From: a virus
Taxonomy: Duplodnaviria > Caudoviricetes
Length of the DNA: 54,448 bases
Reading direction: 5' to 3' (one strand)
Virus record (IMG/VR): IMGVR_UViG_3300017971_000337
Span: 1 to 54,448 of that record
Shown: positions 7,641 to 26,142 of the stretch, one piece after another
Layout of the letters: each line of letters begins with the position of its first letter
How positions within the stretch are numbered: position 1 is the stretch's first letter
Notes under the pieces: model-generated
Seen by the model: the letters and a program-made list of their open reading frames with translations, nothing else
What the model was told of the DNA's origin: nothing
The model's database searches: none
Made by a program: the position numbers and the translations under genes

Positions 7641-7649
7641 AATATCCTC

Positions 7650-7982
7650 CTATGAATGCTCACTTCCAAAAGCTGAAAAAACAACATCAGCATGATTTGC
7701 CCTAACTAAAATAGAATGTGTTGCTTCCATAACTAATCCTGCTGTCACAATAAAAGTATCATTAGCCGGGATAGGTAAATCATAATAAATATAATCATCA
7801 TTACTAACTGTTCCAATTGCTCCAGGAACAAGAGCTACTCGGAAAAGTCTTTCTGAAGTCCCAATATTACAAACTACAATACTGGAAATAATAGTTTCTG
7901 TATCTGCTCCTACTGTATAAAGTGAAGTATCAGTATCAGCCACGACTACTGTGCTTCCAAGTCTTTTATAGTTTATTGACAT
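7650..7982 (-). CDS. Small virion/tail protein
   Basis: 110-aa beta-rich ORF (LYTV...T.ISSIVVCN...FG.E) of a type common beside tail fibres. Confidence 0.6.
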   Translation of the reverse strand: MSINYKRLGSTVVVADTDTSLYTVGADTETIISSIVVCNIGTSERLFRVALVPGAIGTVSNDDYIYYDLPIPANDTFIVTAGLVMEATHSILVRANHADVVFSAFGSEHS

Positions 7983-7983
7983 A

Positions 7984-8913: not shown

Positions 8914-8922
8914 TTCTTCCTC

Positions 8923-10371
8923 CTAAGCCGATGGCGTTCCAGAAAGGGAATTAGAAAAAGCTGATTTATTAAATCTCGTATCGTAACTCTTAACTTTAAC
9001 ATGGTACTCCGTTCCATTGTTTAATTGTCTTAGATAAGTATACGCATATCCATCTACTGTAGATGGGTTCTTAACATCTATAGGGCTTCTTCCCAAATGA
9101 CAGAATTCATTTTTCCATTCCCCTTTCGTTGAAGTTATAAAAACTTCATACCCAACATGGTCTGCTTCTTGTGACTGTGTCCACTTAACAAGTACTCCTT
9201 CGTCTACTCCGTCTACTGAAATCAATTCCACTGGTTCTGGCGGAGTACTATCACGAACAGCTACATTTATTGGCAGGTTCAAGAAGTACGCACTCACAGT
9301 TATTGTTCTTTTATCCCTGTCCCTGGCTAGCTTTATTATTTTAACAGGTTCCCTTGAGAAATAAGCGAAGCTGAGGTCTAACTGTTCGAATAGTCTAAGC
9401 TCTTCCCATCGTCCTGAGCTGTTATCTAACTGAAAAGTTATCTTATATTTAATGTTTTTATTCTCGTCTAACATTAAATCCCCAGCCCAACCGGCTCCAG
9501 CTGAGTTTGCATACAATATCTTATAATCTGAGGAACTTGTTTCGTCCTTAGAATCCTTTGGAACAAGGAAAGTTCTTACCAAATCGTAAGTGGATTGCGA
9601 ACTAGCATCAGAACCTGTCGCGGTTGCGATTGTACCAGAATTGTCGTATTTTACGACATAATCGTTAATTAACTGGTCTTCTACTGTATCTATTTCAAAA
9701 TTCCTTTCTTGTATATCGTCATCATCTATCTCTGTACCTATCTGTCCATTCCAATCTTGGTACTGGATTAAATAAAATTTTTCATTCTCGCAATAGAAAG
9801 AACACCTGGACATCCTACAAAGTTCCTGGATAACAGCCTTGCATTTCTTCCCATCGTCCTTCGTGAATACTACATCCACCCAAGCTGTTTCTGTCGTTTG
9901 TATATCTATAGCTTCTTGAAAAGAACCGTCATCTATATAAGTTGCCTCATCCAAGCCCATCGCAGTCGTCAATATGTTCTTAACAGCTTCTGCTGGTGTT
10001 TCATTTCCCCCTGCTGTATTGTCATAGACACAAACAGTTTCAATCAAGTCTTGCATCACATTGGAACCTGTGACCTTGATAGCACTATTTCTATCACTGA
10101 CAGCTATCTTTTTTATCCTTCCACGAAAAGCATAACCTTCTATGTCGCTGTCGTAAACATCTAAGTCAGTGTTCCACCAGTCAACTCCATAGAACAAACT
10201 GCCGGAATAGAACGGATTGTAACTGTCCTTGTCAGTGTCGTCCAAAGTAACTTCGAACTTAGAAGCTACAGAAAAGGTTCCATTAAAATCCACAGACACA
10301 TCTTGCTTGTCGTAAGATAATACATCTTCGTCCGGAACAGCATATCCATTTAGAGTATACTCCCTGCTCAT
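8923..10371 (-). CDS. Tail tip/baseplate hub-like protein with a C-terminal fibronectin type III domain
   Basis: C-terminal V.W.....D..GY.V...L.NGTEY.VKVKSYD...N.S FN3 pattern; second gene after the tape measure. Confidence 0.7.
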   Translation of the reverse strand: MSREYTLNGYAVPDEDVLSYDKQDVSVDFNGTFSVASKFEVTLDDTDKDSYNPFYSGSLFYGVDWWNTDLDVYDSDIEGYAFRGRIKKIAVSDRNSAIKVTGSNVMQDLIETVCVYDNTAGGNETPAEAVKNILTTAMGLDEATYIDDGSFQEAIDIQTTETAWVDVVFTKDDGKKCKAVIQELCRMSRCSFYCENEKFYLIQYQDWNGQIGTEIDDDDIQERNFEIDTVEDQLINDYVVKYDNSGTIATATGSDASSQSTYDLVRTFLVPKDSKDETSSSDYKILYANSAGAGWAGDLMLDENKNIKYKITFQLDNSSGRWEELRLFEQLDLSFAYFSREPVKIIKLARDRDKRTITVSAYFLNLPINVAVRDSTPPEPVELISVDGVDEGVLVKWTQSQEADHVGYEVFITSTKGEWKNEFCHLGRSPIDVKNPSTVDGYAYTYLRQLNNGTEYHVKVKSYDTRFNKSAFSNSLSGTPSA

Positions 10372-13124
10372 AATTCAAACTTCCTTGCGAATACAAATTT
10401 TACCTTACTTCTTCCGTCTGCTGAGTGCATCCAATAGTCTGAGAACTCTGAGAAATCTGAATTCCAAAGAATGTAATAGGTGTTATATGTATTCGGGGAA
10501 GTTGTCGGCTGACAATATATCCTAACTTCCGCCTCGTTTTGACTCCATACAGTCAGTAAGTCATCGTAATATGTTTTGTCAATGTCCATCCATTCTAGTG
10601 GAAGGTACTCTGTCTGGGCTGTCTTCTTAGATGTTATAGAACCGTCCCTCTTAACCCTATTAGTCGCATCCACTGGCTTTAGATAAGGCTTCATGGATAT
10701 CGGCTTCGGTACAGTTATGGAACTCCATGTTGTCTGGGATCCTACATATCTTACATCGTATGCTCCAGCATTCCTTGTATCGTCTGCTAATCCGTATGCG
10801 GGGGAATTAGCGAAGTATCCCTCAACGGTTGTCTTTATATGTAAATCAATATCGCCCGGAGTAACCTGTCCTTCATTTATATACAATGGATTAGCCAGTA
10901 TCGTGGATGTACCGTTTGTCACTCCGCTTGTGGTGTCTGTGATTATAGTATAGGTGATAGTTATAGTTGTATCCGCATAGATACCGTAACCTGTATTGCC
11001 ATGGATATTATTATTCTTAACAACCTCGTTAGAACCATTGTTGTTCTGTAGTCGTAGACCTGCATTACAATCAAATATATCATTATGTTCTACTGTTATA
11101 TCTCCGCTACTAGCAGCTGCCCCATTGATATTGACTGCGTAATCTTCTGATATCCAATAGAAAATATTGTCTTGAACAATACAATCATTGACACCTGTTC
11201 CAAGGTATATTCCTGCATCGCTAGAATAGAATAGGTTATTGTAAAAATCACATTCGTTGTCTCCACTCACCAAGAAACAATCTGTACTAGATTCATAACA
11301 AGAACCATCATGCATGGAGCTCCATTTCAAAGTCAATTTAGCTGAGTTTATATTAAACAACTTTTCAAGAGTGAAAGAGTTTTCTAAATCAAATTCAATT
11401 CCGTTCACTGTACTTGCAACACTGACTTTCACAAAGGAAGTTGTTGGGGGTTCCGTTATAACAAACTCTCCTACATCGCTGGCATTATCATCCTGATAAC
11501 AGGTTACAAACTTATACCCGGAAAGCCAGGCGGAAGAACCATACTTGCACCAAGAAGAATCTTCATAGGTCAATGGACCAACAACCCCTTCCCCATCATC
11601 TGTATAGATGGCATACATTCCTCTTCTCGACGCAGATAGTTCCTGCCAAGTTACTCCGAAGTATCCATCTTGCATCTTAAAAGCATCTTGATATACAGTG
11701 ACATACAGACCTTCCACTTCCGTTCTAGCTACAACCTGTACTCCTGCGGGATTATAAATTTTAAAATTTGCAGAAGAACTATCGTTAGCATCCCGATAGA
11801 AAATTGCCCAGTTACCATTGCTTAATTCACAACATCCCATATCAGCGATAGCACTACTATCAAATACTGTCGGGGATACAATTTCCACTCCATCTTCGTC
11901 ATATATGACAAATTTCCCTTTATTACTGTCATCCGTATCGCTATAACAATTAACGACATTTCCATTGTTTATCTTGCAAGCTGTATTATAGTTCGGTCTG
12001 TTAGGTGTAAACTCTGTTGCGGAAACCACTGGAGTACCATCTTCTTCGTAAATAGCGTACATCCCATTGGTTAGGTTAGAATCCCTATAGAATACAATCC
12101 AATCTGTATTGTCTAGCACAGTTACGCTGAAATCAGAAGCACTGGCGTTCTGTATTTGTGTTTCGCCTACGACTGAAGAACCTGTATTAGTTCTTATTTG
12201 AAATTTTGGTCTGAGAGAATCATCATTATCTCTATAGCAACAGACCCAATTCCCATTGTCTAATGCGGCAACCTGTAGATAAGTAGTGTGGGCTCCAACA
12301 AAGACAGTCGGACCAGCGACATTGTTTCCATCTGCATCATAGATAACATAAGTGCCTTGATTAGAATTAGAAACATCCCTATAGACGCACACCCAATTCC
12401 CATTTCCAAGAACAGCCACATCTATATAATCTGTTGTCCCACCTTCAAACTGCGTTGGTCCAATCTTATGAGTACTCTCTATAAAACTTGAGCCAAATAC
12501 TCCAGAAGGTTTTATTGTTGGAGACTGTCCTACTGCCGCATAGACACCCTGGAAATTCCCCGTGAATTCAAAAGCGTCTTCTTCGTATGTTCCACTATCT
12601 AATATAACAACCTTCTGATGAGTAGCATCGCAAACTGAAATAGCACCGGAAGCCCCAGTCAAAGTTAATTTTGGAGCAGCTTGAGTGCCCGCATTAGAAT
12701 CATCACCAGTCTTAGAAACAAATATACTGTTCGCATCTGCCGGAGTGTACCCTAACAAGCGAGATTGAATCTTTGGTGTTTGTCCAGTCGCCGCATAGAC
12801 GCCTTCAAAATAAGCATTAGAATAACCGCTCAGGTCTTCATTATAAGTTACAGAGTCTAGCACCAGCACCTTTGTCTGTGTGATAGTACACTCATTAATC
12901 CCTTTTAGAATTGTTTTGTATGGATTGGACTGAGAACCATCACCGGTTGTATCATCACCGGTTGTATCGCTGACAAATATACTGTTCGCATCGGCGTAAA
13001 CATAAGAAGCTTCGTCTATAGTCGTGCCTGCGTCGGTTCCTATAGTATTTACAGGAAATGCGAACTTATTAACGACCGGACTATATTCTAGAGTTATAAA
13101 TTCATCGGATGCATATGCTTGCAT
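10368..13124 (-). CDS. Distal tail-associated multidomain protein (duplicated N-terminal module, propeller repeats, parallel beta-helix)
   Basis: ADANSIFVS..GDD occurs twice; repeated L.NGNW...Y.D blades; N-rich beta-helix; follows the tape measure. Confidence 0.65.
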   Translation of the reverse strand: MQAYASDEFITLEYSPVVNKFAFPVNTIGTDAGTTIDEASYVYADANSIFVSDTTGDDTTGDGSQSNPYKTILKGINECTITQTKVLVLDSVTYNEDLSGYSNAYFEGVYAATGQTPKIQSRLLGYTPADANSIFVSKTGDDSNAGTQAAPKLTLTGASGAISVCDATHQKVVILDSGTYEEDAFEFTGNFQGVYAAVGQSPTIKPSGVFGSSFIESTHKIGPTQFEGGTTDYIDVAVLGNGNWVCVYRDVSNSNQGTYVIYDADGNNVAGPTVFVGAHTTYLQVAALDNGNWVCCYRDNDDSLRPKFQIRTNTGSSVVGETQIQNASASDFSVTVLDNTDWIVFYRDSNLTNGMYAIYEEDGTPVVSATEFTPNRPNYNTACKINNGNVVNCYSDTDDSNKGKFVIYDEDGVEIVSPTVFDSSAIADMGCCELSNGNWAIFYRDANDSSSANFKIYNPAGVQVVARTEVEGLYVTVYQDAFKMQDGYFGVTWQELSASRRGMYAIYTDDGEGVVGPLTYEDSSWCKYGSSAWLSGYKFVTCYQDDNASDVGEFVITEPPTTSFVKVSVASTVNGIEFDLENSFTLEKLFNINSAKLTLKWSSMHDGSCYESSTDCFLVSGDNECDFYNNLFYSSDAGIYLGTGVNDCIVQDNIFYWISEDYAVNINGAAASSGDITVEHNDIFDCNAGLRLQNNNGSNEVVKNNNIHGNTGYGIYADTTITITYTIITDTTSGVTNGTSTILANPLYINEGQVTPGDIDLHIKTTVEGYFANSPAYGLADDTRNAGAYDVRYVGSQTTWSSITVPKPISMKPYLKPVDATNRVKRDGSITSKKTAQTEYLPLEWMDIDKTYYDDLLTVWSQNEAEVRIYCQPTTSPNTYNTYYILWNSDFSEFSDYWMHSADGRSKVKFVFARKFEL

Positions 13125-13133
13125 GTCTTTCCT

Positions 13134-15395
13134 CTACTTTAATAAGGTATCTTCACTAAATAAGTCTGCTCCCATCCTTCTAGCTACATCATTGAGCCTG
13201 GGAACAACTGATTCAGCTACAAATTCATCGCTCATAACATTCCCAGAAATGTTTATATTGACATCTGGAGTCCTTTGTCCAGCTGTTGGGTCTTGATTGA
13301 GGGCACGAAGTAGCCCTGCATTCTGTCTTGTTGCTTCCGCTGTCATAACAGCTTCATTAGAACCTATATAGGCAAGACTATGGTCGTTAGGTACATATCC
13401 TGATTCAAACTTAGGAACATGTCCAGTCCTATATGTTGGAGGTTCAGGCTTCGGGGGAAGAGGCTGAGCCTTTATTAACTGTACTTGCTTAGCACCAAGC
13501 CCGCCGACTAGAGCCGCGAGCATAAAATTCAATGGAGGAAAGGCGGATGCCAATGCTTTCGTGACAGCTTGTGCTGTATTGATAAGAGCTGCAACGATAC
13601 TTATCTTCTTCCCTGATTTGGCTTGTTCATATTGGAGTAAAGCTGTACGATATGCCCTTTCAGCATCCAGCTTTTTCTTTTCTCGTTCGTATTTTTTATC
13701 AATGGCTTCTCTAGCAGCTGCTCTTTCTTCATCATTCATTTCAGAATTTTCAAGGTTCTCGACTTCTGCTTCGTACTGTTCATTTAGTGCATTCATCCTA
13801 GCGTTCAGTTCCAGATTCAGGTGCGCCATCCTATTCTGATATCCCATTGCATGTATATTTTGAATCTGACTTGCGAGGTCACTAGTGATAGCAAGAGTTT
13901 GACCGGCTATATTTGTAAAGTTTTTTATCTCGAGTTCTTCTTTCTTCTGTGCATAAGCCTTGTCTATAGCACTAAGTTCCTCCTGATGTCCCTTGTACAT
14001 CTCCTTCATCTTTTCATATTTTATTCTTTCCGCTTCGAGTTCAGCTCCAGACCTATCTCCTATATATGCTAGGTATTGACCGAGGTCAGGTTTTGGCGGA
14101 GCCGGTCCCTTTGGACCTTTGTCTGGTCCTCCACCAGGAGACTTTTTCCTTATTTTATCAAGGGTTTTATCATATTCTTTCGTCTTTCCATTGATACGGT
14201 CAAGTTCATTTTGATAATCTTCAAGAACCTTAGACACAGACATATATCCATCGGCGACACCCTGTTGGGCATCAGCAAGTTTCTGTGTTTCGTCTCTCCA
14301 TTTTCCAAAGATGTCAAGTTCTATACGACCAAATCCCATATTGATAAGGTCCTGCACCTTTTTGCCCTGTCTATGGAGTCTATATAGCCCTTGAGTGTAC
14401 TGTTCCAGAGAAACATTTCTTTCTTCCGCGTAACCTTTCACCTTCCAACGAAGTTCTTCGACCACCCTCATTTGCTTTTCTAAGTCTTGAACTTTGTTTT
14501 CTTTAGAAAGCCAGGTGTCTAATAGGCGGATAAGAGTCGCGACAGAAAGAATAGCTTTAGAAACTTGCCTTAAAAATCCTATCAGTATCCCGGAACCACC
14601 TGTATCAACACTCTGGAATGCTTTGACAAGTTGTCTTAAGGAAGGTATAAAAAGTTTTCCTACATCTTCATAGAAATCTCCAAGAGTGTTCTGAAGGGCT
14701 TGCCAGCCTGTTCCACTTTCTCTAAGAGCCCTTGCAACTCCACCGAATTGTGTTTGTAATTCTCCCAAGATAACTTTCTGAGCTGAAGCTACATCGCCGG
14801 TTGCAACGAAACCTTTAATCATGTCCACTTGCGTCTCAGATAGTTGAACCCCAACCCTGCTAAGAGCCGCGACACCTTTCACTGGGTCATTGAGAGCTTT
14901 TCCAAGTTGTATAGCTGAGCTCTTAAGGTCTGTTCCCATTGCCGCAGACATGTCCAACATGATTTCTGTGGCGGCGGGAAACACATCCTTACCAATTTTA
15001 GTAAAGGTCAATAGTAGGTTTTGACCCATTATAGTTGTTTCATCACCGAAATCTGTAACAGCCTGGAGGTCAGAAGCCATCTTCTTAACTTCTTTTGCGG
15101 TCAGCCCAGCTGCATTCTTTGTACTCTTAAGAACAGCATTCAATTGGGCTTCGGCTTTCACCTGTACCATCGTAACTTCAGCGACCTTCTTGAATATTTT
15201 TGTCAAAGCAAGAGCGCCGACGGCAACTGCCGCAAAACCTGCCTTTAGACCGCCCAGGGACGACCTCATACCTTTCGTAGATTTCTTGGCTGTTTTTTCA
15301 AGATGCTTAATCTTCTTTTCAGATTCCGTCATCTTAGCTTTGAGTTGTTTATTCTCAGCCTTTAGATGTAGTAGCAGTTCGTTTCCTTTTGCCAT
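13134..15395 (-). CDS. Tail tape measure protein
   Basis: Ala/Leu helical protein with the typical LQ.VT.FGDE...LLTFTKI...A.QLGKALNDP..G..AL.RVG motif; follows the tail chaperone. Confidence 0.92.
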   Translation of the reverse strand: MAKGNELLLHLKAENKQLKAKMTESEKKIKHLEKTAKKSTKGMRSSLGGLKAGFAAVAVGALALTKIFKKVAEVTMVQVKAEAQLNAVLKSTKNAAGLTAKEVKKMASDLQAVTDFGDETTIMGQNLLLTFTKIGKDVFPAATEIMLDMSAAMGTDLKSSAIQLGKALNDPVKGVAALSRVGVQLSETQVDMIKGFVATGDVASAQKVILGELQTQFGGVARALRESGTGWQALQNTLGDFYEDVGKLFIPSLRQLVKAFQSVDTGGSGILIGFLRQVSKAILSVATLIRLLDTWLSKENKVQDLEKQMRVVEELRWKVKGYAEERNVSLEQYTQGLYRLHRQGKKVQDLINMGFGRIELDIFGKWRDETQKLADAQQGVADGYMSVSKVLEDYQNELDRINGKTKEYDKTLDKIRKKSPGGGPDKGPKGPAPPKPDLGQYLAYIGDRSGAELEAERIKYEKMKEMYKGHQEELSAIDKAYAQKKEELEIKNFTNIAGQTLAITSDLASQIQNIHAMGYQNRMAHLNLELNARMNALNEQYEAEVENLENSEMNDEERAAAREAIDKKYEREKKKLDAERAYRTALLQYEQAKSGKKISIVAALINTAQAVTKALASAFPPLNFMLAALVGGLGAKQVQLIKAQPLPPKPEPPTYRTGHVPKFESGYVPNDHSLAYIGSNEAVMTAEATRQNAGLLRALNQDPTAGQRTPDVNINISGNVMSDEFVAESVVPRLNDVARRMGADLFSEDTLLK

Positions 15396-15465: not shown

Positions 15466-16131
15466 TTATGACATTGTACTCTGTTCCGCGAATATGTCTA
15501 AGACTTCTTTGGGATATGGTTTCTCTGAGTACTTTGGCATAACCACCTTTTTCTTTACTGTCTTCGAAGATTGAGTAGGTGGCGAGGACTTGCTTTTCCT
15601 CGGTTGTTCTTCGCCTATGAAATTCTTCATTAGTGCCCCCAAGTTTTTTTTAACTACATCAAAGTTGAACACAAATAGTAGAAACAATAGGTGAACAACT
15701 TCATCGCCCTTCATAATCTTCAGGGCTTTCTTTGCTTTTTTCTTTGAATGTTTGAGCTTTACGGTTCCTCTTTTCTTTGTGGATACAAATACCCACTTGC
15801 TAACAAATTCAATTGTGTCCTTTTGAAACTTTCTAAAGTCTTCATTGGCTTCAAATATTTTTACATGAGCGACTATTTTTTCTATCGCGCCCGGATCTCT
15901 ATAGTTAAGTGCGGTCAAGAAATCTAAATCAATAAAGACTTTGTAATACTCTTGCAACATATAAGACATGTCGTGTAAGAACTTATCGTATTCACCAAAG
16001 TAGACGGGAGTTGTAATAAGCAAGTATTTATTGACCTTGAACACGAAAGGCTTTTCTCGGATTATATCAAGGTCAGTAAATTTATCTTGCAATAATTCTT
16101 TAAGGCTGTATTTATCTTTAGAATTAAACAT
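15466..16131 (-). CDS. Tail assembly chaperone (G; GT form made by -1 frameshift)
   Basis: Between tail tube and tape measure; likely start MFNSKDKY at 16131; slippery A-run at VVKKN. Confidence 0.75.
   Translation of the reverse strand: MFNSKDKYSLKELLQDKFTDLDIIREKPFVFKVNKYLLITTPVYFGEYDKFLHDMSYMLQEYYKVFIDLDFLTALNYRDPGAIEKIVAHVKIFEANEDFRKFQKDTIEFVSKWVFVSTKKRGTVKLKHSKKKAKKALKIMKGDEVVHLLFLLFVFNFDVVKKNLGALMKNFIGEEQPRKSKSSPPTQSSKTVKKKVVMPKYSEKPYPKEVLDIFAEQSTMS
15643..15651 (-). other. Programmed -1 ribosomal frameshift site (A AAA AAC)
   Basis: Minus strand reads GTT AAA AAA AAC; the -1 frame is open to a TAA at 15397-15395 that overlaps the tape-measure ATG (TAATG). Confidence 0.8.
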
Positions 16132-16135
16132 GAGC

Positions 16136-16735
16136 TTAACTTGAACTTGCAGCAGCTGGCCACGCCCAGAATGCAATGTTGTCCTGAGTAGCATATGCCG
16201 CATTGTAGTCCCAAGTTGGATTTGTTGTTAAGGGAGTAGAATCCTTTTGAGCTATTCCTTTGAAAGGAATGGACGCATGCTCTTCCCCGCCCAACATAAC
16301 TTCGAAAGCCTCAGCGGTGATCTGGAGCCTTCTTATGTAAAGCCGAAGTTCGTTACCGTCTACAGTTTGCCCGATTAAAATCATTGATGGAAATACCGGC
16401 GATGGAGCCGTAGATCCCATCATAACCCTGCGATATGTACCAGAAGTATCATATCTTCTTTGTGAAACAAGAGCAAGAGTTTCTGGTTGTAACTGTTTTA
16501 AAGAAGTTTCAATTTCAAATTCCTGATTGATAATGTCCCTTCTTATTTCAGTTCGTGGGATACCAGTCTTATAAATGGCATACTCCACAGTTTGGCGCCA
16601 CGCCTTTTCTGCATCCAAATAACCAATGCCAAGATCCCCATTTCCATCATGAAAATTGAGATAGACGGCAGGGTCATAGAGAAACATATAATTGTCGTCA
16701 TCGCCAAAATTAGTAGTTGTTATGTTTAGACTCAT
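16136..16735 (-). CDS. Major tail (tube) protein
   Basis: 199-aa beta-rich protein with DLGIGY motif; AAGGAG RBS; upstream of chaperone and tape measure. Confidence 0.75.
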   Translation of the reverse strand: MSLNITTTNFGDDDNYMFLYDPAVYLNFHDGNGDLGIGYLDAEKAWRQTVEYAIYKTGIPRTEIRRDIINQEFEIETSLKQLQPETLALVSQRRYDTSGTYRRVMMGSTAPSPVFPSMILIGQTVDGNELRLYIRRLQITAEAFEVMLGGEEHASIPFKGIAQKDSTPLTTNPTWDYNAAYATQDNIAFWAWPAAASSS

Positions 16736-16755: not shown

Positions 16756-17076
16756 TTATATTGAGTTCTTAAGGCTTCCAGCCTTATGTAGCTCCAAAAA
16801 TTTTTCGGGTGTGACTCCTTTGTCATCGACATAATAATCACAAGGAGGTTTTCCCATCACTAGACTATGGTATGGAACATTGTATTCTTCCAGAAGGGCT
16901 TTCGTATCCATAAGATGCTTCCAATGTCTACCTGTTTGTACCACTATCGTATTCCCTTGATAGTACAATTCCCTAATGACTGCTATGATTTTCTCCCTCG
17001 CACCTATAAGAGTGTACTTATCCTCATGAAAAGAAGTGAAGAAAATAGTGTCATCCAAGTCAAAACATATATTCAC
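16756..17076 (-). CDS. HAD-family phosphatase, capsule-biosynthesis type
   Basis: FDLDDTI motif I, TGR motif II, GKP..DYYVDDK motifs III/IV. Confidence 0.88.
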   Translation of the reverse strand: MNICFDLDDTIFFTSFHEDKYTLIGAREKIIAVIRELYYQGNTIVVQTGRHWKHLMDTKALLEEYNVPYHSLVMGKPPCDYYVDDKGVTPEKFLELHKAGSLKNSI

Positions 17077-17888
17077 TTTCTAAGCATCTCCCTCTTTTCC
17101 TTTTCACATTCAAGTATTACTCTACTACCATAAAACCCGAGGGCTTTTTCTGCATCTCTGACCTTTTCAACCATGGAAAACATTTCTGCAGGGTTCAAGG
17201 AACTCTTATGGTCGCTTCCCCAGAGATTCTTATCTAAGGTGATGTGCTTTTCTATCCAGGTTATCCCTGCATATATCGGTAAAATAGTATTGTATATCCC
17301 ATCGTCATGACCGGAATACCCTATCTGCTTCGTGGGATACTTGTTCTGTAGCCAATGAATATAATTCAAGTTCAAGTTTTCTATCTTAGTCGGGTACTCC
17401 GCGACCGAATGGAGTAGTACATCTGGATTCCCAACCTTTACAGCTTGTTCTATTTCCTCTTCAGAACTCATCCCAGTGCTCATAATCACCGTTTTATATT
17501 TTAATCTACAGAAAGCTAACAGGTCAATATCGGTTATAAGAGCGGAAGGTATCTTAACTGTATCACAGAATTCCGCCATAAACCCAGCGCTGTCCAAGTC
17601 CCAGACAGAGCTGAACCATTTTATCTTATGAAGTTTACAGATGGAATTTATCTTTTCGTACTCCCTGTAATTAAATTCTATCTTCTTCTTATACTTTAAA
17701 TATGTCATTTCGCCCCAAGGTGTCGCCCTTGGAAGATCCTTTTTATCATCGGGAACGCATATATCAGGGTTCCTCTTTTGAAACTTAACATAATTGAATC
17801 CAGCGATGGCTGACAAAGTTATTAACTTCCTTGCTACTTCTAAGTCTCCATTGTGATTGATGCCTATTTCTGCAACTAGATTTATCAT
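17073..17888 (-). CDS. neuB: N-acetylneuraminate/nonulosonate(-9-phosphate) synthase, lacking the C-terminal SAF domain
   Basis: AEIGINHNGD, VKFQKR, KIPS, STGMS, GYSGH, IEKHITLD..LWGSDH..SL motifs. Confidence 0.93.
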   Translation of the reverse strand: MINLVAEIGINHNGDLEVARKLITLSAIAGFNYVKFQKRNPDICVPDDKKDLPRATPWGEMTYLKYKKKIEFNYREYEKINSICKLHKIKWFSSVWDLDSAGFMAEFCDTVKIPSALITDIDLLAFCRLKYKTVIMSTGMSSEEEIEQAVKVGNPDVLLHSVAEYPTKIENLNLNYIHWLQNKYPTKQIGYSGHDDGIYNTILPIYAGITWIEKHITLDKNLWGSDHKSSLNPAEMFSMVEKVRDAEKALGFYGSRVILECEKEKREMLRK

Positions 17889-19129
17889 TTTACATTCTCA
17901 TTTATTATGAATTTTATCTTGCCTGAGATGGACTTCTCTAGCCTGTCCACATAATTGAATTTTACTTTCAGCCCTTTGCATATCTCCAAGACTACTTCCA
18001 TCAACTTGTCTTCATCCGCGAAACCGTATGTATCCCCTTTAACAATATTAACTGTAATGAGGTTGTCCTTCTGCACTAGTTGAAAACATTTATAGTCTAT
18101 GAAAGTTCCATCAGACTTAGTTACATGAGACATGTGATGTAATAAGAATGATGGAGACACCAGCCCTTCTTTAGAAACTATAAAGTCGTTGTCCCTTCCC
18201 TGAACCTTTATAATTGGAAGCTCTCTCCCACAGGAACACTTCTTATCAGTTCTAAATAGCTTATCTCCATTCTTATACCTTATAAACGGTGAAGCTAAAT
18301 TCCATATATCAGTTACAATCATGTTATCTTCTTCGTCTGATTGTAGAATAGCCCTTTCCATTGTTTCATGCATCCCTTCTTGTCGTTCACAGTCCCATGC
18401 ACTGGAACCTCCGTCACAACAAACATATTCTTCGAACACCTTTCCGTGAAAAGCCAGCTCTATTGTCTTTCTTACTTCCGGGTAGAGCTGTTCTGCTATT
18501 AAGTTTATAGAAGGTATCTCTATTCTATAGTTGTTATCAATAATCCAATTCGCTAGGATGTATGCTGTTGATACATAAGACCGTAACTGTACAGGCTGAA
18601 AAGCCCTTATATCGTCTAATGTGCGCCTTATATTCCGCCTTTCTACATCACCCTGTATAGTTAATAAGAGCTTTCCTTTTCCTACACTCCCTCGGGCAGA
18701 ACAGACAACCGCTCTCTTGTCTTTTGACTGGTCATAACCGCTCCATATCCATCCACGATTATGCTTCTTAGCTCTCATATCCTTCGTCAAGTTGTCTTCA
18801 TGGTATATAAGAGGCTCGCCTGTACTACCTCCAGTCCTCATGTTAGTGCTTATATGCTTCTTATCAACCCAATCATTATATTGTTGAAGCTCCTTCTTTG
18901 TAATCACTGGAAGCTTTTCCAAGTCTTCAATCTCTTTTATACTGTTTATGTCAATTCCATGTTTATTATACAGCTTGTGATAGCCTCGCACATTAAAGTA
19001 TGCATGCTTTACAATCATACGCATCAATTCAGTCTGGAAGCTTCGAAGCTTTTCGTAACTCCAATATTGCGTTTCCAATAGGTCAATCAATTCCCCTTCT
19101 CCTCTTAGCTTCTCGAATAGCCATATCAA
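17885..19129 (-). CDS. Phenylacetate-CoA ligase/CapK-like adenylate-forming enzyme
   Basis: LPVITK, TGGSTGEP, PFIRY..GD, CSCGR..P, GR..D and SGK motifs; true start may be TTG at about 19090. Confidence 0.88.
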   Translation of the reverse strand: MIWLFEKLRGEGELIDLLETQYWSYEKLRSFQTELMRMIVKHAYFNVRGYHKLYNKHGIDINSIKEIEDLEKLPVITKKELQQYNDWVDKKHISTNMRTGGSTGEPLIYHEDNLTKDMRAKKHNRGWIWSGYDQSKDKRAVVCSARGSVGKGKLLLTIQGDVERRNIRRTLDDIRAFQPVQLRSYVSTAYILANWIIDNNYRIEIPSINLIAEQLYPEVRKTIELAFHGKVFEEYVCCDGGSSAWDCERQEGMHETMERAILQSDEEDNMIVTDIWNLASPFIRYKNGDKLFRTDKKCSCGRELPIIKVQGRDNDFIVSKEGLVSPSFLLHHMSHVTKSDGTFIDYKCFQLVQKDNLITVNIVKGDTYGFADEDKLMEVVLEICKGLKVKFNYVDRLEKSISGKIKFIINENVK

Positions 19130-19790
19130 AATAATGTCTAGCCTCTATGTGATTGCCAGCTATTCGCGTGGAAATCCCTTTGTCTGTGTACCTGTAAAAA
19201 TACAACTCTTTGTCCAAGTGTGCAAGTCCACCGACCTCTTCCATCTTCAATGTTATGTCCCTGTCCGCTGCTCTTAATTGTTTTGGGTTAAATCTTGCGG
19301 ACTTATTATAGTAGTGCTTACTGAACACCTTGAAATGACTAATAGCATGTTCATCGTACAGTATTGAACCACCTTTAGGAATCCTATTCCTCTTAACCTT
19401 AAGAACTTCTAAGTTTTTATCGCAATGAAAATAGTTAGAAAACATCAGACCACACATAGAACATTTCTTTGCGAACGCAAACATTTCTGCCAGTGCATCA
19501 TTAGTAAGTACATCATCACTATCCAGGATACCTATTAACTTTCCCTTCGCCTTCTCGAAAGCTATAAGGTGTCCATTAGACACTCCCATATTAGTTGGCA
19601 TCTTTACCAGGGTTATCCTATCGTCCTTGAAACTGTTTACAACTTCCACGGAATTATCTGTGGAACCGTCATCTACAATTATCAACTGCCAATTTTCATG
19701 TGTCTGTTCTAATACAGACCTTATGGCTTGACCGATATATTCGCCCTTATTATAATTCGTCATAGAGATAGAAAACAGATTATCGTCCAT
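19083..19790 (-). CDS. Glycosyltransferase family 2
   Basis: YN...YI..AI.SVL.QT, VDDGSTD and LDSDD motifs. Confidence 0.93.
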   Translation of the reverse strand: MDDNLFSISMTNYNKGEYIGQAIRSVLEQTHENWQLIIVDDGSTDNSVEVVNSFKDDRITLVKMPTNMGVSNGHLIAFEKAKGKLIGILDSDDVLTNDALAEMFAFAKKCSMCGLMFSNYFHCDKNLEVLKVKRNRIPKGGSILYDEHAISHFKVFSKHYYNKSARFNPKQLRAADRDITLKMEEVGGLAHLDKELYFYRYTDKGISTRIAGNHIEARHYFDMAIREAKRRRGID

Positions 19791-20697
19791 AAAACCTACT
19801 CAATTTTCCTTGATTTGAATGTATAACTTTACTTATCGTTCTTGGATATTCGCAGATACCGTGAAATATCGCCCATGAACATGGACATATTTCTGATTCG
19901 CACTTCCCTTTCCTATGTAACTGTATAGTTTCAAGGTCGTCTGGGAACACCCCAAACTCTATATTGCCTTTCCCACCACAACTTCTTATCTTCCAATTGC
20001 TGTCCACTACTAAAAAATCGACACCACTAGAACATTGTCTACCCTTAACTCCCCATCGTTTATAAGATTCATTCCAATGTTCCCAGGATATGTACTCACT
20101 GTTTTCTAGCTTATACATAATGTCCTTTGGAGGAAACACTAATCCATCTTCATAAGGGCTTAACTTCAAATCCCTGTAGTGCATCATCTTTATCTTAAGG
20201 TTGAATACCATTGCCATCCAAAGTATATGGTCTATGTGCTCATAGTAACTTGGATGTAGAACCATCATCGGCCAAACAGTTATGCCTTTATTCAAAAATC
20301 TTCGAGCCCTCTGGAATACCACCAGAACTTTGTCCAATCGCATGAGCTCCTTCCAATGAATTGAAAACCATATTGCCAGGTTGTTTGAATCTGGACACTC
20401 CAACATCTTGTCCCATTTATTAGCCAACAAGTTTGAATTCACTACGACTGGGTACTCTTCCATCAAGCCTGTGAAAATATTAAAAGCCCAGGGATAATTT
20501 ATTGGTTCCCCGATACTGCAAAAATGAAAACAAATATGTTCGTTCGGTACTACTTCAGCCAACTTCTTAAAGTCTTCGACCGTAACTTTTTTAAATGGAG
20601 CTTTTCTTCTTTTGTCAGTCTTCCGTACATAACAGTATTCGCATTTCATGTTACAAGGTGCAGGGAATTCAGTTAGAATTATTGACCTTGATTCCAT
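19780..20697 (-). CDS. Radical SAM protein with a C-terminal Cys-rich (SPASM/twitch-like) region
   Basis: CNMKCEYC motif, GEP motif, C-terminal C..G...C...C....C.C. Confidence 0.85.
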   Translation of the reverse strand: MESRSIILTEFPAPCNMKCEYCYVRKTDKRRKAPFKKVTVEDFKKLAEVVPNEHICFHFCSIGEPINYPWAFNIFTGLMEEYPVVVNSNLLANKWDKMLECPDSNNLAIWFSIHWKELMRLDKVLVVFQRARRFLNKGITVWPMMVLHPSYYEHIDHILWMAMVFNLKIKMMHYRDLKLSPYEDGLVFPPKDIMYKLENSEYISWEHWNESYKRWGVKGRQCSSGVDFLVVDSNWKIRSCGGKGNIEFGVFPDDLETIQLHRKGKCESEICPCSWAIFHGICEYPRTISKVIHSNQGKLSRFYGR

Positions 20698-21619
20698 CGA
20701 TAATAAGCCTCCTATGTGATTCGCACTCGAAAAAGTTCAATAGGTCTATGTCCTTATCATTATTTATAAAGTCCTTGAGCCACTTTGTGTACTTAATAAA
20801 CATTTCTTTACTATAATGTGCCCACGAAATGTTCCAGCTCTTACTATTTAATGTGTCTAACATCGGCTGTAACTTATAAGGCTGTATATCATTATCAGTT
20901 ATTGTATACCCTGTATGTTCTGTATATTCCGCCTCAGTGTCCATTTTAACGAAATAACCGTAACTACTAAAATTATTTTTGAAAAGGAAATTCCCAAGAC
21001 CATAATAAATAGATTTTCCCTTATAAGTTTCGTATGCAGATGGAACATGGTTGTGATGCCACACTATAAGATCGACACCAAGGTCCACCAGATACCGGCT
21101 AACATATTGTTGATAAGGATTTGGATAAGGAAAACCTTCATTGCCTCCATGTAGAATTACAATTTTAGTTTCTGCTTTACACTCTAAGACCTGTTTGACA
21201 AGCTCTAGCATGTCCCAGGTGAATATAAAACCTTGTCCGCCCTCGTTTTCGCACATATTAAATAGTGCTACACCATCCACTATCAACGGTTCAGGTAGTA
21301 CTCCTAGACAAGCGAAGCCATAATACTCTAACAGGTTACAAGTTTTCGCTAATCCTATGTTACCAAAGTCAAAAGAATGATTGTTAGCAAGGCAACAGAC
21401 TATCCCAGCCTCCAATTTCAATAGGTCTAAATACTTTGGGTCGATGAACAGGTTCGGTCCTTGCTTTTGCCTTGGATATGTATTGTCCAGGCTCCCTTCA
21501 AAATTAGTTACAAACAAATCGCTATGATTAAATTGATTATAAAATTTTCCATACACTTCTTTCGGGTCTACACTATTCAAATGAACTGGATAAAAGTCCC
21601 CTGTAAAAATTATTTTCAT
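20669..21619 (-). CDS. CapA/PGA_cap-like metallophosphoesterase
   Basis: GD, NFEG, LANNH.FDFG, HGG.E, HH.H and YGLGNF motifs. Confidence 0.88.
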   Translation of the reverse strand: MKIIFTGDFYPVHLNSVDPKEVYGKFYNQFNHSDLFVTNFEGSLDNTYPRQKQGPNLFIDPKYLDLLKLEAGIVCCLANNHSFDFGNIGLAKTCNLLEYYGFACLGVLPEPLIVDGVALFNMCENEGGQGFIFTWDMLELVKQVLECKAETKIVILHGGNEGFPYPNPYQQYVSRYLVDLGVDLIVWHHNHVPSAYETYKGKSIYYGLGNFLFKNNFSSYGYFVKMDTEAEYTEHTGYTITDNDIQPYKLQPMLDTLNSKSWNISWAHYSKEMFIKYTKWLKDFINNDKDIDLLNFFECESHRRLIIDGIKVNNSN

Positions 21620-22449
21620 AGCTCCTCATAGATATTTATAAATTCTTTAACGATTTGTTTTGGATGCCAATAGGTTTCCATCCATAGCCTATTAGACCTT
21701 CCTATCGCCTGTATATAATCCCTTCCGGCTCCAAGTATTTCCCGAAGACCCTGTTCCAAAGAAGAAATGTGGAGGTGAAAGAAAGGGCTCCCGTTAGAAC
21801 CGCTCACCCTTTTCAATACATCCTCGACCTCTGGACTCATATGGCATATAGTTAATTTCCCAAGAGCTAATCCCTCAAGCCCTGAACGATGAAAGCTCCC
21901 TGTTATACACTCATCGATTATTATGTCACATGTCTGTTTTCTTTTAAGGCATTCGTCCAAAGGAACCTTATTTATAATATCAACTTCTATCTTAAATTCG
22001 TTCTGTATCTTTGTCAGTATCTCCTTTGTTTTTTCGTACCCTTTATTGTTCCAGTTATTTTCATCGGCTATCTTTGACGGGGAATAGCCGATTTTAATCG
22101 GGGTATTTACATTATATAACAGGTTGTATTCTGCTGTTTCAAAATTCAAAACATTCCTAACGACTTTACAATCCTTGTACTCTGGCAATGTCGCGTGATA
22201 CTGAGAGATAACTGTCTTGTCATAAGGGTAGTCTAACATCACTCGTTCTGGTTCTGAATGATATTGTATCAGTTGCTTTCCCTTACAAGTAAAAAAATTA
22301 TTATGAAAATGAAGAATATCACAATCTCTACCATCTAATTCCTTCCCTTTTAATACCTCACTAGAGTGTTCACTATATGTATTTATTGCCTTGGACAATT
22401 CGTCCGGAGCCCACGCTATTGGCGTTTGCTTAACCTGTAAGATTTTCAT
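21616..22449 (-). CDS. Glycosyltransferase, GT-B (GT4-like)
   Basis: HFH, NKG, DIIIDE...G....SGLEGLALGK..I and terminal F...Y..L motifs. Confidence 0.75.
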   Translation of the reverse strand: MKILQVKQTPIAWAPDELSKAINTYSEHSSEVLKGKELDGRDCDILHFHNNFFTCKGKQLIQYHSEPERVMLDYPYDKTVISQYHATLPEYKDCKVVRNVLNFETAEYNLLYNVNTPIKIGYSPSKIADENNWNNKGYEKTKEILTKIQNEFKIEVDIINKVPLDECLKRKQTCDIIIDECITGSFHRSGLEGLALGKLTICHMSPEVEDVLKRVSGSNGSPFFHLHISSLEQGLREILGAGRDYIQAIGRSNRLWMETYWHPKQIVKEFINIYEEL

Positions 22450-23767
22450 TCCTATAAACTACCTCGTCGTGTCCATTTGGTTTAAAGGTACACTTAACCC
22501 AATCCGCTTCATAGTTATAATTGTGGGCGGTTGATATCCCAGGTGTCTGTCTATACGGATCTTTGTTCTTAAAGAAATCAAATCCCATCAAGTGAAGACT
22601 GTTGAAAGTTCCAGCCCAGTATAGTAACCTTATAATTGAAAACCCTGTCGTTGGGATTATCCTATTGATATGGCTGTACTCTCTGAATATTTTATGATCA
22701 TAGAACCATTTTCTTCTCAAGATATATTCTTGCTTTCCTGGTTCAACCTTCTCTTTTATAAAGTGTCTCCAGTATGGATACTTCTTATTACAACATATTA
22801 TTCTTAAGTCGCATGGAACATCCATATTATAGTCTTGTAAATAAGTTGTGGCATGGATATTCGTCTTTTCCCCAGTGTTTTCCGGGTCTATTATGAAAGA
22901 ATTAAATCGTACAACTATATCATAACTGTCTATGTACTCACCCTCACCGCTATCCCTGACCATTCCTGAATTTGCTACACAGATTATATCCTTCTTTCTA
23001 ATGTATTCCCGGAATTCGTTTAGCTCCATAAACTTGAATTGCTTTTCGCGCATTGAATCCACATCCCTTATTTGAATGTTCGGGTCTAACGGTTTTATCT
23101 GTTCTTTGTAGGAACCCTTTATTTCTACTGGAGGTTCCAGCTGTTTCAATTCTTTCGGTGTATCTACATCCAATACATTTCTTATGGGGTAAAAAATTGT
23201 ATCCTTATTGTACAGATTCTTCTTTAAATTCGGTAATTCAAAGACATAAGAAACAAAAATGAAATGACTAATCTCGAACACCTTTGGATAATCTTGTCTA
23301 CGATACAGGTTGTGCTTTACAAGTTGTCTACCTTTTCCGCCTTCTTCTTCATACATATATAAATATGGATGAGTTCCCTCTATGTTCTTTTTACATAGCA
23401 AACTCTTACACTTATTCTGTTCAAAGAACCTTAGAGCGCCTCGTATATCTTCTATCGTACGTTCTGGATATGTTAAGTACAGTAAAACGATTATATCATC
23501 AGGCTTGAGTTTCTTCATTTTGACAACATCCAATAAGACATCCTTTGGATTGGAATCATCTTGATGAACCTTTTTGGTATTCCTATACAATACAGAATAT
23601 CCAACATTCCTAACAAGTTTCAGGATTTCCATGTCATTAGTTGTGATTATGACATTACTCTTGGTCAATCCCTTGACCGATTCCAAAGTGTAATGGATAA
23701 GCTTCCTGTTCTTGAAAGGAATTCCCTTGGAACCTTGTCTAGCCGGTATAACATAATAGACCATCAC
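22430..23767 (-). CDS. neuA: CMP-sialic acid synthetase (NeuA-like) fused to a GT29-like sialyltransferase domain
   Basis: N-terminal IPARQGSKGIP.KN, YPER, RRQD and DVDT; C-terminal sialylmotif L (CVANSG...S..GEYIDSYDIVVRFN...TGEKT), S (PTTG...LHLMGF) and VS (HNYNYE). Confidence 0.88.
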   Translation of the reverse strand: MMVYYVIPARQGSKGIPFKNRKLIHYTLESVKGLTKSNVIITTNDMEILKLVRNVGYSVLYRNTKKVHQDDSNPKDVLLDVVKMKKLKPDDIIVLLYLTYPERTIEDIRGALRFFEQNKCKSLLCKKNIEGTHPYLYMYEEEGGKGRQLVKHNLYRRQDYPKVFEISHFIFVSYVFELPNLKKNLYNKDTIFYPIRNVLDVDTPKELKQLEPPVEIKGSYKEQIKPLDPNIQIRDVDSMREKQFKFMELNEFREYIRKKDIICVANSGMVRDSGEGEYIDSYDIVVRFNSFIIDPENTGEKTNIHATTYLQDYNMDVPCDLRIICCNKKYPYWRHFIKEKVEPGKQEYILRRKWFYDHKIFREYSHINRIIPTTGFSIIRLLYWAGTFNSLHLMGFDFFKNKDPYRQTPGISTAHNYNYEADWVKCTFKPNGHDEVVYRNENLTG

Positions 23768-24597
23768 ACCACCTCTTCCATCGGAATGTACTCAAAAAAA
23801 TCTAGTCCACTATCTGGAGTACAACAAATTATTCTGTCCTTCCACGGAAGAAACTTCTTAAACATTTCAATCTTTGCATCACACCATTCTTGATTCAAAT
23901 AATTTTTTCTATTGTTCAGCCCTTCATCATTATAAGAATGAACATTCCCATCATTCGCTTCCAGGTATTCCTTTGTTGGAGGCTTCATGTCAAATCCAAA
24001 TAGGTATATTTTGCTAGCATCCATTATGATTGCAAGGTTTAGAGCGGCGAGCCCGGAAAGGCTTCCGCTGTACAGACCTAGATTATAGTCTGTTTGTGGT
24101 TCTCCTTTATTTATTGCAAATTCAAATGTACTAGAACGGAAATCCTTATGCTTCCACCCTGTTCTATACGCACAGAATATCATGCCTCTATAGTTTTTAA
24201 TTTCCGTCTGAGCTTGTTTCCACATCACCTCGTCTATAAAAAGCATCGCGTCAGCATCAGGGCAATCTTTGACGGAATGATTGAGGACGATTGTAAATTC
24301 TTTCTTAAACCTGTTATGGTCGAAGCCCTTTAAACTTCGTCCACTCCCCACTATAAAGACTTTTTTACCGGTCAATAGCCCTGAAACTTTTTCGGCTGTT
24401 TCCAATTCACCCTGTTCCATCAACCTGTTTACAGTTTCCTTGTCAGGAATGAAGTGTCCTTTCTTAATTAACTTATAACACTCCTCCAAGGGGAGTTGTC
24501 TAAACTCTTTACAGGTCTCGAAGGTTACACTCCTATCGTTATAGAAGTGCGTATAGTATTTCCCTGGTCCGTTATATTGTACTTTCCCAAATATCAT
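23764..24597 (-). CDS. Sialyltransferase-fold protein (Maf/DUF115/GT42-like)
   Basis: VFIVGSGRSL, TIVLN and SG.AALNLA...A.KIYLFGFDM motifs, with a later HSY. Confidence 0.7.
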   Translation of the reverse strand: MIFGKVQYNGPGKYYTHFYNDRSVTFETCKEFRQLPLEECYKLIKKGHFIPDKETVNRLMEQGELETAEKVSGLLTGKKVFIVGSGRSLKGFDHNRFKKEFTIVLNHSVKDCPDADAMLFIDEVMWKQAQTEIKNYRGMIFCAYRTGWKHKDFRSSTFEFAINKGEPQTDYNLGLYSGSLSGLAALNLAIIMDASKIYLFGFDMKPPTKEYLEANDGNVHSYNDEGLNNRKNYLNQEWCDAKIEMFKKFLPWKDRIICCTPDSGLDFFEYIPMEEVV

Positions 24598-26110: not shown

Positions 26111-26142
26111 AAAATAAAGGACTGGCGGTTTCCCGCCAGCCC
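26111..26142 (-). terminator. Intrinsic terminator after the major capsid gene
   Basis: Minus strand GGGCTGGCGGGAAACCGCCAGTCC followed by a T-rich tract. Confidence 0.8.

Follow-up and report, generated by a model that had tools for sequence, protein, structure and literature searches.

The window analyzed here is the complete viral record IMGVR_UViG_3300017971_000337 of IMG/VR, 54,448 bases of a tailed phage (Duplodnaviria; Caudoviricetes) with a CheckV completeness of 100%. On its minus strand, one gene encodes a NeuA-like synthetase of cytidine monophosphate (CMP)-nonulosonate followed, in the same polypeptide, by a transferase domain of the glycosyltransferase 29 (GT29) type. The product is most likely a soluble, cytoplasmic, bifunctional enzyme of the phage, as judged from its sequence. 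GT29 outside eukaryotes, and in phages, is not new; new here are the natural fusion of a synthetase with a GT29 domain and its setting in a nonulosonate (NulO) module within the phage structural operon.

Organization of the fusion protein

The open reading frame (ORF) encodes 445 amino acids when read from the GTG codon at 23767 and 444 when read from the ATG codon at 23764, and ends with the stop codon at 22430–22432. Residue numbers refer to P0001, the 444-residue form in the protein collection, which starts at the ATG. The N-terminal synthetase domain and the C-terminal GT29-type domain are connected by a linker of 22 residues. In the AlphaFold model of the full-length protein (mean predicted local distance difference test score (pLDDT) 87.3; predicted template modeling score (pTM) 0.60), residues 211–220 of the linker have pLDDT values below 50, and the model gives the two domains no fixed orientation. 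When the domains were docked as separate chains, the score was 0.00 against a mark of 0.32, which counts neither way on binding.

A preliminary description of this DNA, made from the letters alone, had recognized the two domains and quoted six motifs. All of these were located in the protein: IICVANSG at residue 260, SGEGEYIDSYDIVVRFN at 272, TGEKT at 297, PTTGFS at 371, LHLMGFD at 390 and HNYNYE at 414.

Table 1. Features of the fusion gene and of the neighboring cassette genes
Feature	Position	Strand	Basis
Fusion gene, CMP-NulO synthetase and GT29-type transferase	22430..23767	-	ORF and Pfam
N-terminal CMP-NulO synthetase domain, residues 1-210	23135..23764	-	PF02348, PDB sequence matches, fold
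Linker, residues 211-232	23069..23134	-	residues 211-220 with pLDDT <50
C-terminal GT29-type (GT-A variant) transferase domain, residues ~233-444	22433..23068	-	PF00777, profile, model
Sialylmotif L equivalent, residues 260-304, IICVANSG...TGEKTNIH	22853..22987	-	aligned to ST3Gal-I and ST6Gal1
Sialylmotif S equivalent, residues 371-396, PTTGFS...LHLMGFD	22577..22654	-	aligned to PSTG...DLYGFG of 2wnb
Sialylmotif VS equivalent, H414-x4-E419 (HNYNYE)	22508..22525	-	aligned to VHDGDFE of 2wnb
MptE-like (Maf/GT42-like fold) putative NulO transferase	23764..24597	-	phrog_4603 'alpha-2,3-sialyltransferase', 9.4e-19
277-residue GT-B (GT1-like) glycosyltransferase	21616..22449	-	no Pfam family; Atlas resemblance to 'glycosyltransferase family 1'
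PGA_cap/CapA-like protein	20669-21619	-	Pfam
Radical-SAM-like protein	19780-20697	-	family searches
GT2 glycosyltransferase	19083-19790	-	family search
Adenylate-forming ligase	17885-19129	-	family search
NeuB-type nonulosonate synthase, 271 residues	17073..17888	-	PF03102, 205.9 bits; PDB 6ncs, 3.7e-27
Small HAD-type phosphatase paired with NeuB	16756..17076	-	phrog_1238, 3.8e-21; TIGR01689, 6.5e-9, below cut-off

The N-terminal synthetase domain

The assignment of residues ~1–210 to a NeuA-like domain, made in the preliminary description, is borne out by family, sequence and fold searches. CTP_transf_3 (PF02348), the Pfam model suggested there, matches residues 6–118 with 30.0 bits (cut-off 22.6). 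Compared with PDB sequences by phmmer, the N-terminal half matched the Vibrio CMP-N-acetylneuraminic acid (CMP-Neu5Ac) synthetase 6ifd (E = 6.9e-13), Neisseria 1eyr (1.9e-4) and the Aeromonas CMP-pseudaminic acid (CMP-Pse) synthetase 9ftb (2.7e-3). These alignments span the PARxGSKG..KN loop, the RRQDxP segment and the D-x-D pair, which in the phage protein are represented by PARQGSKG...KN at residue 7, LYRRQDYP at residue 153 and DVD at residues 199–201. The segment IPARQGSKGIPFKN and the DVD have aligned counterparts in 6ifd and 1eyr, with DVD opposite DIDT. The nucleotide-binding loop and the DVD are invariant across all eight fusion proteins described below, and their residues presumably have the binding and catalytic roles in the synthetase half.

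The best PDB fold matches of the full-length model are 6ifd, 1eyr, 9t4z, 1qwj and 9ftc (E between 4e-14 and 7e-11). Those of the synthetase half are synthetases of CMP-Neu5Ac, CMP-Kdn and CMP-Pse, while KdsB enzymes, the cytidylyltransferases of 3-deoxy-D-manno-octulosonic acid (Kdo), rank lower. The phage domain thus shares its fold and its nucleotide-binding and catalytic motifs with the bacterial enzymes 6ifd, 1eyr, 9t4z and 9ftc, at 18–24% identity. Some NeuA proteins have esterase or other extensions; the phage synthetase instead carries a C-terminal transferase.

At residues 95–102 (23467–23481 region) the protein reads LLYLTYPERT where the Neisseria CMP-Neu5Ac synthetase 1eyr has LLQPTSPLRT, and none of the eight fusion proteins departs from L95, Y99, P100 and R102. 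The altered segment may reflect a different sugar specificity.

The C-terminal GT29-type domain

Single-sequence PDB searches with the C-terminal half found nothing, and a word-indexed protein search with residues 215–445 returned only the protein itself and P0002, so that profile and fold searches were needed. The Pfam model Glyco_transf_29 (PF00777) matches with 30.8 bits in the full protein and 32.7 bits in the C-terminal 230 residues alone (cut-off 23). An exhaustive phmmer search with residues 215–444 against 1.84 billion cluster representatives yielded 310 prokaryote or metagenome relatives at E ≤ 1e-3, of which 92 were found at E ≤ 1e-10 and 7 at E ≤ 1e-30. The query and the top 118 of the 150 listed matches (119 proteins in total) were scanned with Pfam and used to assess conservation. 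PF00777 was found in 109 of the 119 (best E = 3.7e-28). R286 and G298 are invariant in their alignment, while N265, G275, I278, D279, D282, V284, N288, G374, G394, F395, H414 and E419 are at least 90% conserved.

Three sialylmotifs are present. The donor-binding motif L, VANSG...G.YIDS.D.VVRFN...TG.KT.IH, aligns with ST3Gal-I and ST6Gal1, and nine of its positions are at least 90% conserved. In motif S, PTTGF...L.GFD corresponds to PSTG...LYGFG of 2wnb, with G374, G394 and F395 among the conserved residues. In motif VS, H414-NYNY-E419 corresponds to VHDGDFE of 2wnb, with both the His and the Glu conserved at that level. We take the His of motif VS, the equivalent of H414, to be catalytic.

A profile of the C-terminal domain family, built from 125 sequences, matched porcine ST3Gal-I (2wnb) with E = 1.6e-21 over profile positions 106–285, from motif L through the H-x4-E pair, and ST6Gal1, ST6GalNAc2 and ST8SiaIII with E values of 1e-11 to 1e-9. 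The domain was modeled with a pLDDT of 90.1 and a pTM of 0.90, and all 30 of its PDB fold matches at E ≤ 1e-3 are GT29 chains, the best being ST6Gal1 (6qvs, 9.1e-8). The best viral structural match in BFVD is A0A6J5NLG3, a protein of an uncultured Caudovirales phage automatically named 'Glycosyl transferase family 29' (E = 2.8e-17, TMq 0.78, 26% identity); sialyltransferases of poxviruses, herpesviruses and giant viruses follow. A0A6J5NLG3 is 492 residues long, and only 230 alignment columns cover the GT29 domain. The Pfam model, the family profile, the motif alignments and the fold all agree on a GT29-type domain, as the preliminary description had proposed. That description had named the lack of a GT29 fold as grounds for refutation, and the modeled domain does have this fold.

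It is very improbable that the domain belongs instead to GT42 or to the MptE-like proteins (DUF115/Maf), with the GT29 signal merely reflecting a shared fold. The GT42 enzymes CstII and Cst-I are indeed the next structural neighbors (E of 7e-3 to 6e-2, the first CstII at 6.9e-3), phage MptE-like proteins appear among the BFVD matches (5.8e-4, rank 13), and the MptE-like protein encoded just upstream aligns weakly to the GT29 domain of the related protein P0004 (E = 0.004). However, PF00777 scores above its gathering threshold, and no GT42 or MptE family of Pfam matches even at E ≤ 10. The profile that reaches GT29 at 1.6e-21 reaches GT42 only at about 4e-3 (4e-3 to 3e-2 for CstII and Cst-I), and the closest match among viral proteins, from a phage, bears the name GT29.

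The GT-A-variant fold and motifs L, S and VS are shared with the mammalian enzymes ST3Gal-I (2wnb/2wml), ST6Gal1 (6qvs/4js1), ST6GalNAc2 (6apj) and ST8SiaIII (5bo6). As compared to these, the phage domain is shorter (about 210 residues versus about 270–320), has no stem, anchor or disulfides and no recognizable motif III, and it belongs to a cytoplasmic protein in which it is fused to the donor-making enzyme. The highest Kyte–Doolittle mean over 19 residues is 1.17 and no membrane segment was detected; the type II membrane anchor is thus absent, as previously noted, and so is the disulfide between motifs L and S, no cysteine being conserved among the relatives. Petit et al. (2018; PMC5811610) reported, in the main text, bacterial GT29 proteins with all four sialylmotifs that likewise have neither an anchor nor the disulfide cysteines. 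The phage domain resembles these in its sialylmotifs, its PF00777 match, the missing anchor and the lack of conserved L/S disulfide cysteines, so that the two absences separate it from the eukaryotic subgroup and not from GT29 overall. It differs in being phage-encoded, and the cellular relatives found here are mostly Actinomycetota. The main text of that paper does not contain the words 'phage' or 'virus', and its passages with 'fusion', 'fused' or 'bifunctional' concern other enzymes; a fused form may still exist among its 23 bacterial sequences. The label 'eukaryote-type' in the preliminary description makes the domain look more surprising than it is, given the anchor-less bacterial GT29 proteins reported in 2018, the 310 prokaryote or metagenome relatives and the phage protein in BFVD with an automatic GT29 name.

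Fused and unfused relatives

Among 151 proteins, consisting of the phage protein and the 150 listed matches of the exhaustive search, eight combine a NeuA-like and a GT29 domain in one chain (P0001, P0002, P0004, P0005, P0008, P0017, P0044 and P0081). These represent eight clusters at 50% identity, all of them metagenomic with 1–3 contigs each, and the only source name that any of them carries is 'CMP-N-acetylneuraminic acid synthetase'. P0004 (749 residues) is a triple fusion of an MptE-like, a synthetase and a GT29 domain, and thus joins into one polypeptide what two adjacent genes encode in the window; its N-terminal domain is 36% identical (E = 1e-47) to the MptE-like protein encoded upstream. 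An insert in P0081 gave no significant match to that protein (E = 0.032).

The fusion is rare; elsewhere in phages, synthetase and GT29 are encoded by two genes lying side by side (16 of 80 loci). A tblastn search of the whole fusion protein against 50,697 phage records matched a single record, in the synthetase half only, and a search of viral contigs with the fusion protein alone found no relatives. A scan of viral contigs with the alignment of the eight fusions retained 80 loci, all with a synthetase ORF. Searched with phmmer, 17 of them also have a GT29-like ORF, and with the family profile 22 do. This ORF is next to the synthetase gene in 16 of the 17 phmmer loci, on the downstream side in most and on the upstream side in three; a fused ORF is seen in none. 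NeuB is encoded in 71 and the phosphatase of the haloacid dehalogenase (HAD) type in 62 of the 80 loci, and in 12 of the 17 loci with GT29 by phmmer the next gene after GT29 is a homologue of the 277-residue GT1-like gene (E of 1e-70 to 1e-80). Among 29 prokaryotic loci, from a scan of one genome per species, five have only the synthetase (three of these in archaeal assemblies), 24 have only GT29, and none has both by phmmer. The GT29-only loci come mostly from Cellulomonas, Isoptericola and Streptomyces, and also from Falsiroseomonas, Brevundimonas and a metagenome-assembled genome (MAG) of Polyangiaceae. In 80 metagenomic loci ranked by the synthetase half, a set in which the contigs of the other fusion proteins are not included, a GT29-like ORF was found in three by phmmer and in five by the family profile, again never fused.

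In a FastTree phylogeny of 191 GT29 domains, five of the fused forms make up one clade and the other three lie among unfused forms, and its well-supported branches require two or more changes of state. We conclude that the fusion formed on at least two occasions from the gene pair that recurs in phages. The tree was midpoint-rooted, has local supports only and includes no eukaryotic sequences, and it is therefore silent on the relation to eukaryotic GT29. Given that the same protein is present on 3 contigs from 3 sources, that 7 other cluster representatives (35–54% identity) encode the two domains in a single frame, separated by a similar linker, and that 5 of the 8 fused forms are a single clade, we can practically dismiss the merging of adjacent genes by a sequencing or assembly error, even though synthetase and GT29 are separate ORFs in all 16 viral loci where they are neighbors and a fused ORF occurs in 0 of the 189 fetched loci (80 viral, 29 genomic and 80 metagenomic).

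Other arrangements were also seen among the relatives. In the viral contigs L017 and L037, two GT29-like ORFs flank the synthetase (about 9430–11606), one from each deep branch of the GT29 tree. A GT29-like domain stands at the end of several larger proteins, namely P0059 (868 residues), P0070 (1310), P0101 (937) and P0146 (1181). Some of the 119 scanned proteins contain tetratricopeptide repeats (TPR; up to four for one TPR family), and one each has a hexapeptide acyltransferase, a GT1, a GT2 or an alpha-2,8-polysialyltransferase domain. A locus of a Thermoplasmatales archaeon MAG (L082, about 7357–13642) encodes an MptE-like protein, a synthetase, a distant GT29-like ORF and NeuB in the order of the phage module, and its synthetase, which is 50% identical to the N-terminal domain of the phage protein, is the best cellular match. 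The locus may belong to a provirus, or it may give a clue to the host range.

The sugar cassette within the late operon

The minus-strand arm of the phage genome encodes the terminase, portal, scaffold, major capsid protein, tail-completion protein, tape measure and tail proteins, while the plus-strand arm encodes a primase, two helicases, a DNA polymerase and a ligase. No integrase was found among ten plus-strand proteins tested, and from its gene content the phage looks virulent. The closest cultured relatives are remote: the terminase is at most 44.8% identical to its matches, which are spread over unrelated hosts, and the capsid protein has one weak match. We therefore propose no host.

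The sugar cassette is located after the neck genes and before the tape measure gene. The genes in the stretch from 26097 to 16756 overlap or abut one another, with gaps of −1 to −47 nt. The stop codon of the upstream MptE-like gene overlaps the ATG of the fusion gene as TGATG, preceded by GAGG, and the downstream GT1-like gene starts 20 nt inside the fusion gene. Promoter-like sites (45 versus 38.7±6.6) and terminator-like sites (10 versus 9.1±3.3) were no more frequent than in shuffled sequences. Because of this gene packing and the lack of an excess of such sites, the cassette reads as a part of the late operon and not as an independent unit. This setting in a phage late structural operon had been missed in the preliminary description, the domain content of which stands.

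A strong terminator-like hairpin is found on the minus strand at 26119–26142, just after the major capsid gene, with a stem of 10 pairs, 8 of them G-C, and a T-rich tail. It is the sole convincing one between 13000 and 28000, and it may dampen transcription of the neck and sugar genes that lie downstream.

The cassette genes are listed in Table 1. The upstream MptE-like protein scores 20.2 bits with PF01973, below the cut-off of 34.6. The 277-residue protein resembles 'glycosyltransferase family 1' clusters of the Atlas (feature score 0.97, TM-score 0.93), a similarity that serves as a lead only. No NeuC or genes of the pathways to Pse or legionaminic acid (Leg) were found in the window by family scans.

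Six related loci (L006, L007, L016, L023, L040 and L042) share a frame around a variable slot, which runs through the capsid gene, a 159-residue ORF, the tail-completion gene, a 157-residue ORF, the MptE-like gene and the synthetase gene to the slot itself, and then through NeuB, the HAD phosphatase, a 199-residue ORF, a 245-residue ORF and the tape measure gene. In L007 and L040, no close matches to NeuB, HAD or the tail genes were found within the fetched stretch. L006 has the four-gene core only (MptE-like, synthetase, NeuB and HAD). In the window phage, the slot holds five additional genes besides the GT29 domain that is fused to the synthetase.

Three of the genes in the slot, those of the ligase, the radical-SAM-like and the PGA_cap/CapA-like proteins (17885–21619), have homologues in 0 of 80 related viral loci each, and they are probably a lineage-specific tailoring of the sugar or glycan. 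The 199- and 245-residue ORFs (15466–16735, minus strand) immediately precede the tape measure gene and share 68 nt. Both are kept in relatives (E of about 1e-80 and 1e-50, respectively) and match no family; they could code for the tail tube and a chaperone, or for a chaperone pair made by frameshifting. In the replication arm, a 305-residue protein (42030–42947, plus strand) matches phrog_842, 'beta-glucosyl-HMC-alpha-glucosyltransferase', with 6.3e-19. The phage may thus also glycosylate its own DNA.

Predicted activity and donor sugar

On the strength of the sequence and structure models, we consider it probable that both domains are active, the first in CMP-sugar synthesis and the second in transfer. 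In the mechanism we propose, NeuB and the HAD phosphatase would make a nonulosonate from a host precursor. The N-terminal domain would condense this nine-carbon 2-keto-3-deoxy acid sugar with CTP to give the CMP-sugar, and the GT29-type domain would then pass the sugar to an acceptor glycan, which is probably the product of the GT1-like enzyme, whose gene is tightly linked. By analogy with the solved GT29 enzymes, H414 of the H-x4-E pair would serve as the general base, and the fusion would tether donor synthesis to donor use; it may also channel the CMP-sugar, as suggested in the preliminary description. The reaction would be one step of a late-expressed glycan-building module that also includes the upstream MptE-like enzyme, presumably a second transferase of related fold, the downstream GT1-like enzyme, GT2 and sugar-modifying enzymes.

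Several observations weigh against this assignment. The PF00777 match spans only profile positions 26–105 of 272 (protein residues 232–307), which correspond to motif L. Sialylmotif III, a four-residue consensus of H/Y-Y-aromatic-acidic, is not recognizable: PYRQ stands where ST3Gal-I has HYWE, without residue-for-residue alignment, and the region is weakly conserved, with Arg alone common in the family consensus. Identity to the solved GT29 enzymes is 15–19%, with TM-scores (TMq) of 0.46–0.61, and the full-length model has no defined inter-domain interface (pTM 0.60). Among the equivalog models, the synthetase half scores best with PseF of NCBIfam, at 49.1 bits against a cut-off of 205.7, and NeuB reaches 200 bits with TIGR03569 (NeuB_NnaB; cut-off 399.65) and 148 bits with PseI (cut-off 340.25). 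The cassette contains no flippase, polymerase or lipid-carrier priming enzyme, which leaves the target a guess. In the literature searched, no report on the activity of a prokaryotic or phage GT29 was found.

Since the synthetase and NeuB both fall below the equivalog cut-offs, the sugar is not assigned by family models. The phosphatase paired with NeuB presumably fits a 9-phosphate route, of the kind leading to 2-keto-3-deoxynonulosonic acid (KDN) or Neu5Ac-9-phosphate, and does not settle the sugar. A Neu5Ac-like donor is our first choice, held with reserve; KDN comes second, as a somewhat weaker candidate, and a sugar of the Leg or Pse type seems rather unlikely.

The GT29-like domain might instead be a non-catalytic module that binds the sugar or CMP, or it might transfer another ulosonic acid such as Kdo. 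The unconserved motif III and the restriction of the Pfam match to motif L would suit such a role, and for GT29-like proteins of plants the use of other ulosonic acids is suspected. We nevertheless regard it as improbable, given that the H-x4-E pair and the residues of motifs L and S are at least 90% conserved in the 119 relatives, that the domain is joined to a synthetase of NeuA and not KdsB type, with NeuA structures as the top fold matches, and that the operon also contains a gene for a NeuB synthase.

Possible targets of the module

The sugar might be attached to the phage's own virion proteins or to a phage-built glycan, toward which we lean slightly and with less than even confidence; this preference is based on the position in the late operon, the virulent gene set and the lack of export or lipid-carrier genes. 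Maf and MptE-like enzymes are soluble and put Pse or Leg on proteins. The upstream neighbor is of this type (phrog_4603), known from flagellin glycosylation, and P0004 fuses such a domain to the synthetase and GT29, whereas the C-terminal domain of the fusion itself is of the GT29 and not the MptE type. Mycobacteriophages glycosylate their own virions. In one published abstract, capsid glycosylation has been inferred from phage glycosyltransferase genes.

With the same chemistry, the target could be a glycan of the host envelope, such as lipopolysaccharide, lipooligosaccharide, capsule or an S-layer glycan. The phage would then alter the surface of the infected cell, for example to block superinfection. 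This reading comes next in our estimate, with the remainder left to other targets. Solved GT42 relatives such as CstII act on lipooligosaccharide. Viral contigs very often carry modules with synthetase (80 of 80 loci), NeuB (71) and HAD (62), as would suit an auxiliary role of a general kind. A freshwater virome preprint interprets phage neuA/neuB clusters in this way (10.1101/655167). On the other hand, the phage looks virulent: it encodes a primase, helicases, a polymerase and a ligase of its own, and an integrase is absent from the 10 plus-strand proteins tested. Moreover, translational coupling ties the cassette into the late structural operon, where it sits between the genes for the neck and the tail, a position kept in six relatives, and no export or lipid-carrier gene belongs to it.

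Returning to the phage's own proteins as the target, we put forward, as a tentative and more daring proposal, that a virulent tailed-phage lineage coats its own particles with a sialic-acid-like glycan. The nonulosonate module in the late operon would make the sugar and attach it to the capsid or tail, and the fused GT29 domain would cap a glycan built by the GT1-like and GT2 enzymes.

Significance

GT29 enzymes are the workhorses of animal sialylation, and as membrane-anchored, disulfide-bonded Golgi proteins they are difficult to produce in bacteria. A soluble GT29 domain that occurs naturally, does not depend on cysteines and is joined to the enzyme that makes its donor is an attractive candidate for one-pot sialylation. 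An engineered fusion of a CMP-Neu5Ac synthetase with an alpha-2,3-sialyltransferase, both from Neisseria and the latter of family GT52, was reportedly used for this purpose in the late 1990s. It has the same two activities, predicted here, in one polypeptide, whereas the phage fusion is natural and of GT29 type. The literature searched, in which subscription journals are largely outside coverage, contained no paper on a phage GT29 and no natural synthetase–sialyltransferase fusion.

The fusion and the recurrent pair of synthetase and GT29 genes indicate that phages carry and reshuffle GT29, which bears on the debated bacterial origin of the eukaryotic family. The conserved place of the module in the structural operon further raises the idea that some environmental phages may carry sialic-acid-like sugars on their virions. 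If the virion coating proposed above is true, this would be the first sialylated phage virion, with a soluble, disulfide-free, self-supplying GT29 enzyme as a practical by-product, and phages would be a reservoir and shuttle for a family otherwise tied to sialylation in the eukaryotic Golgi.

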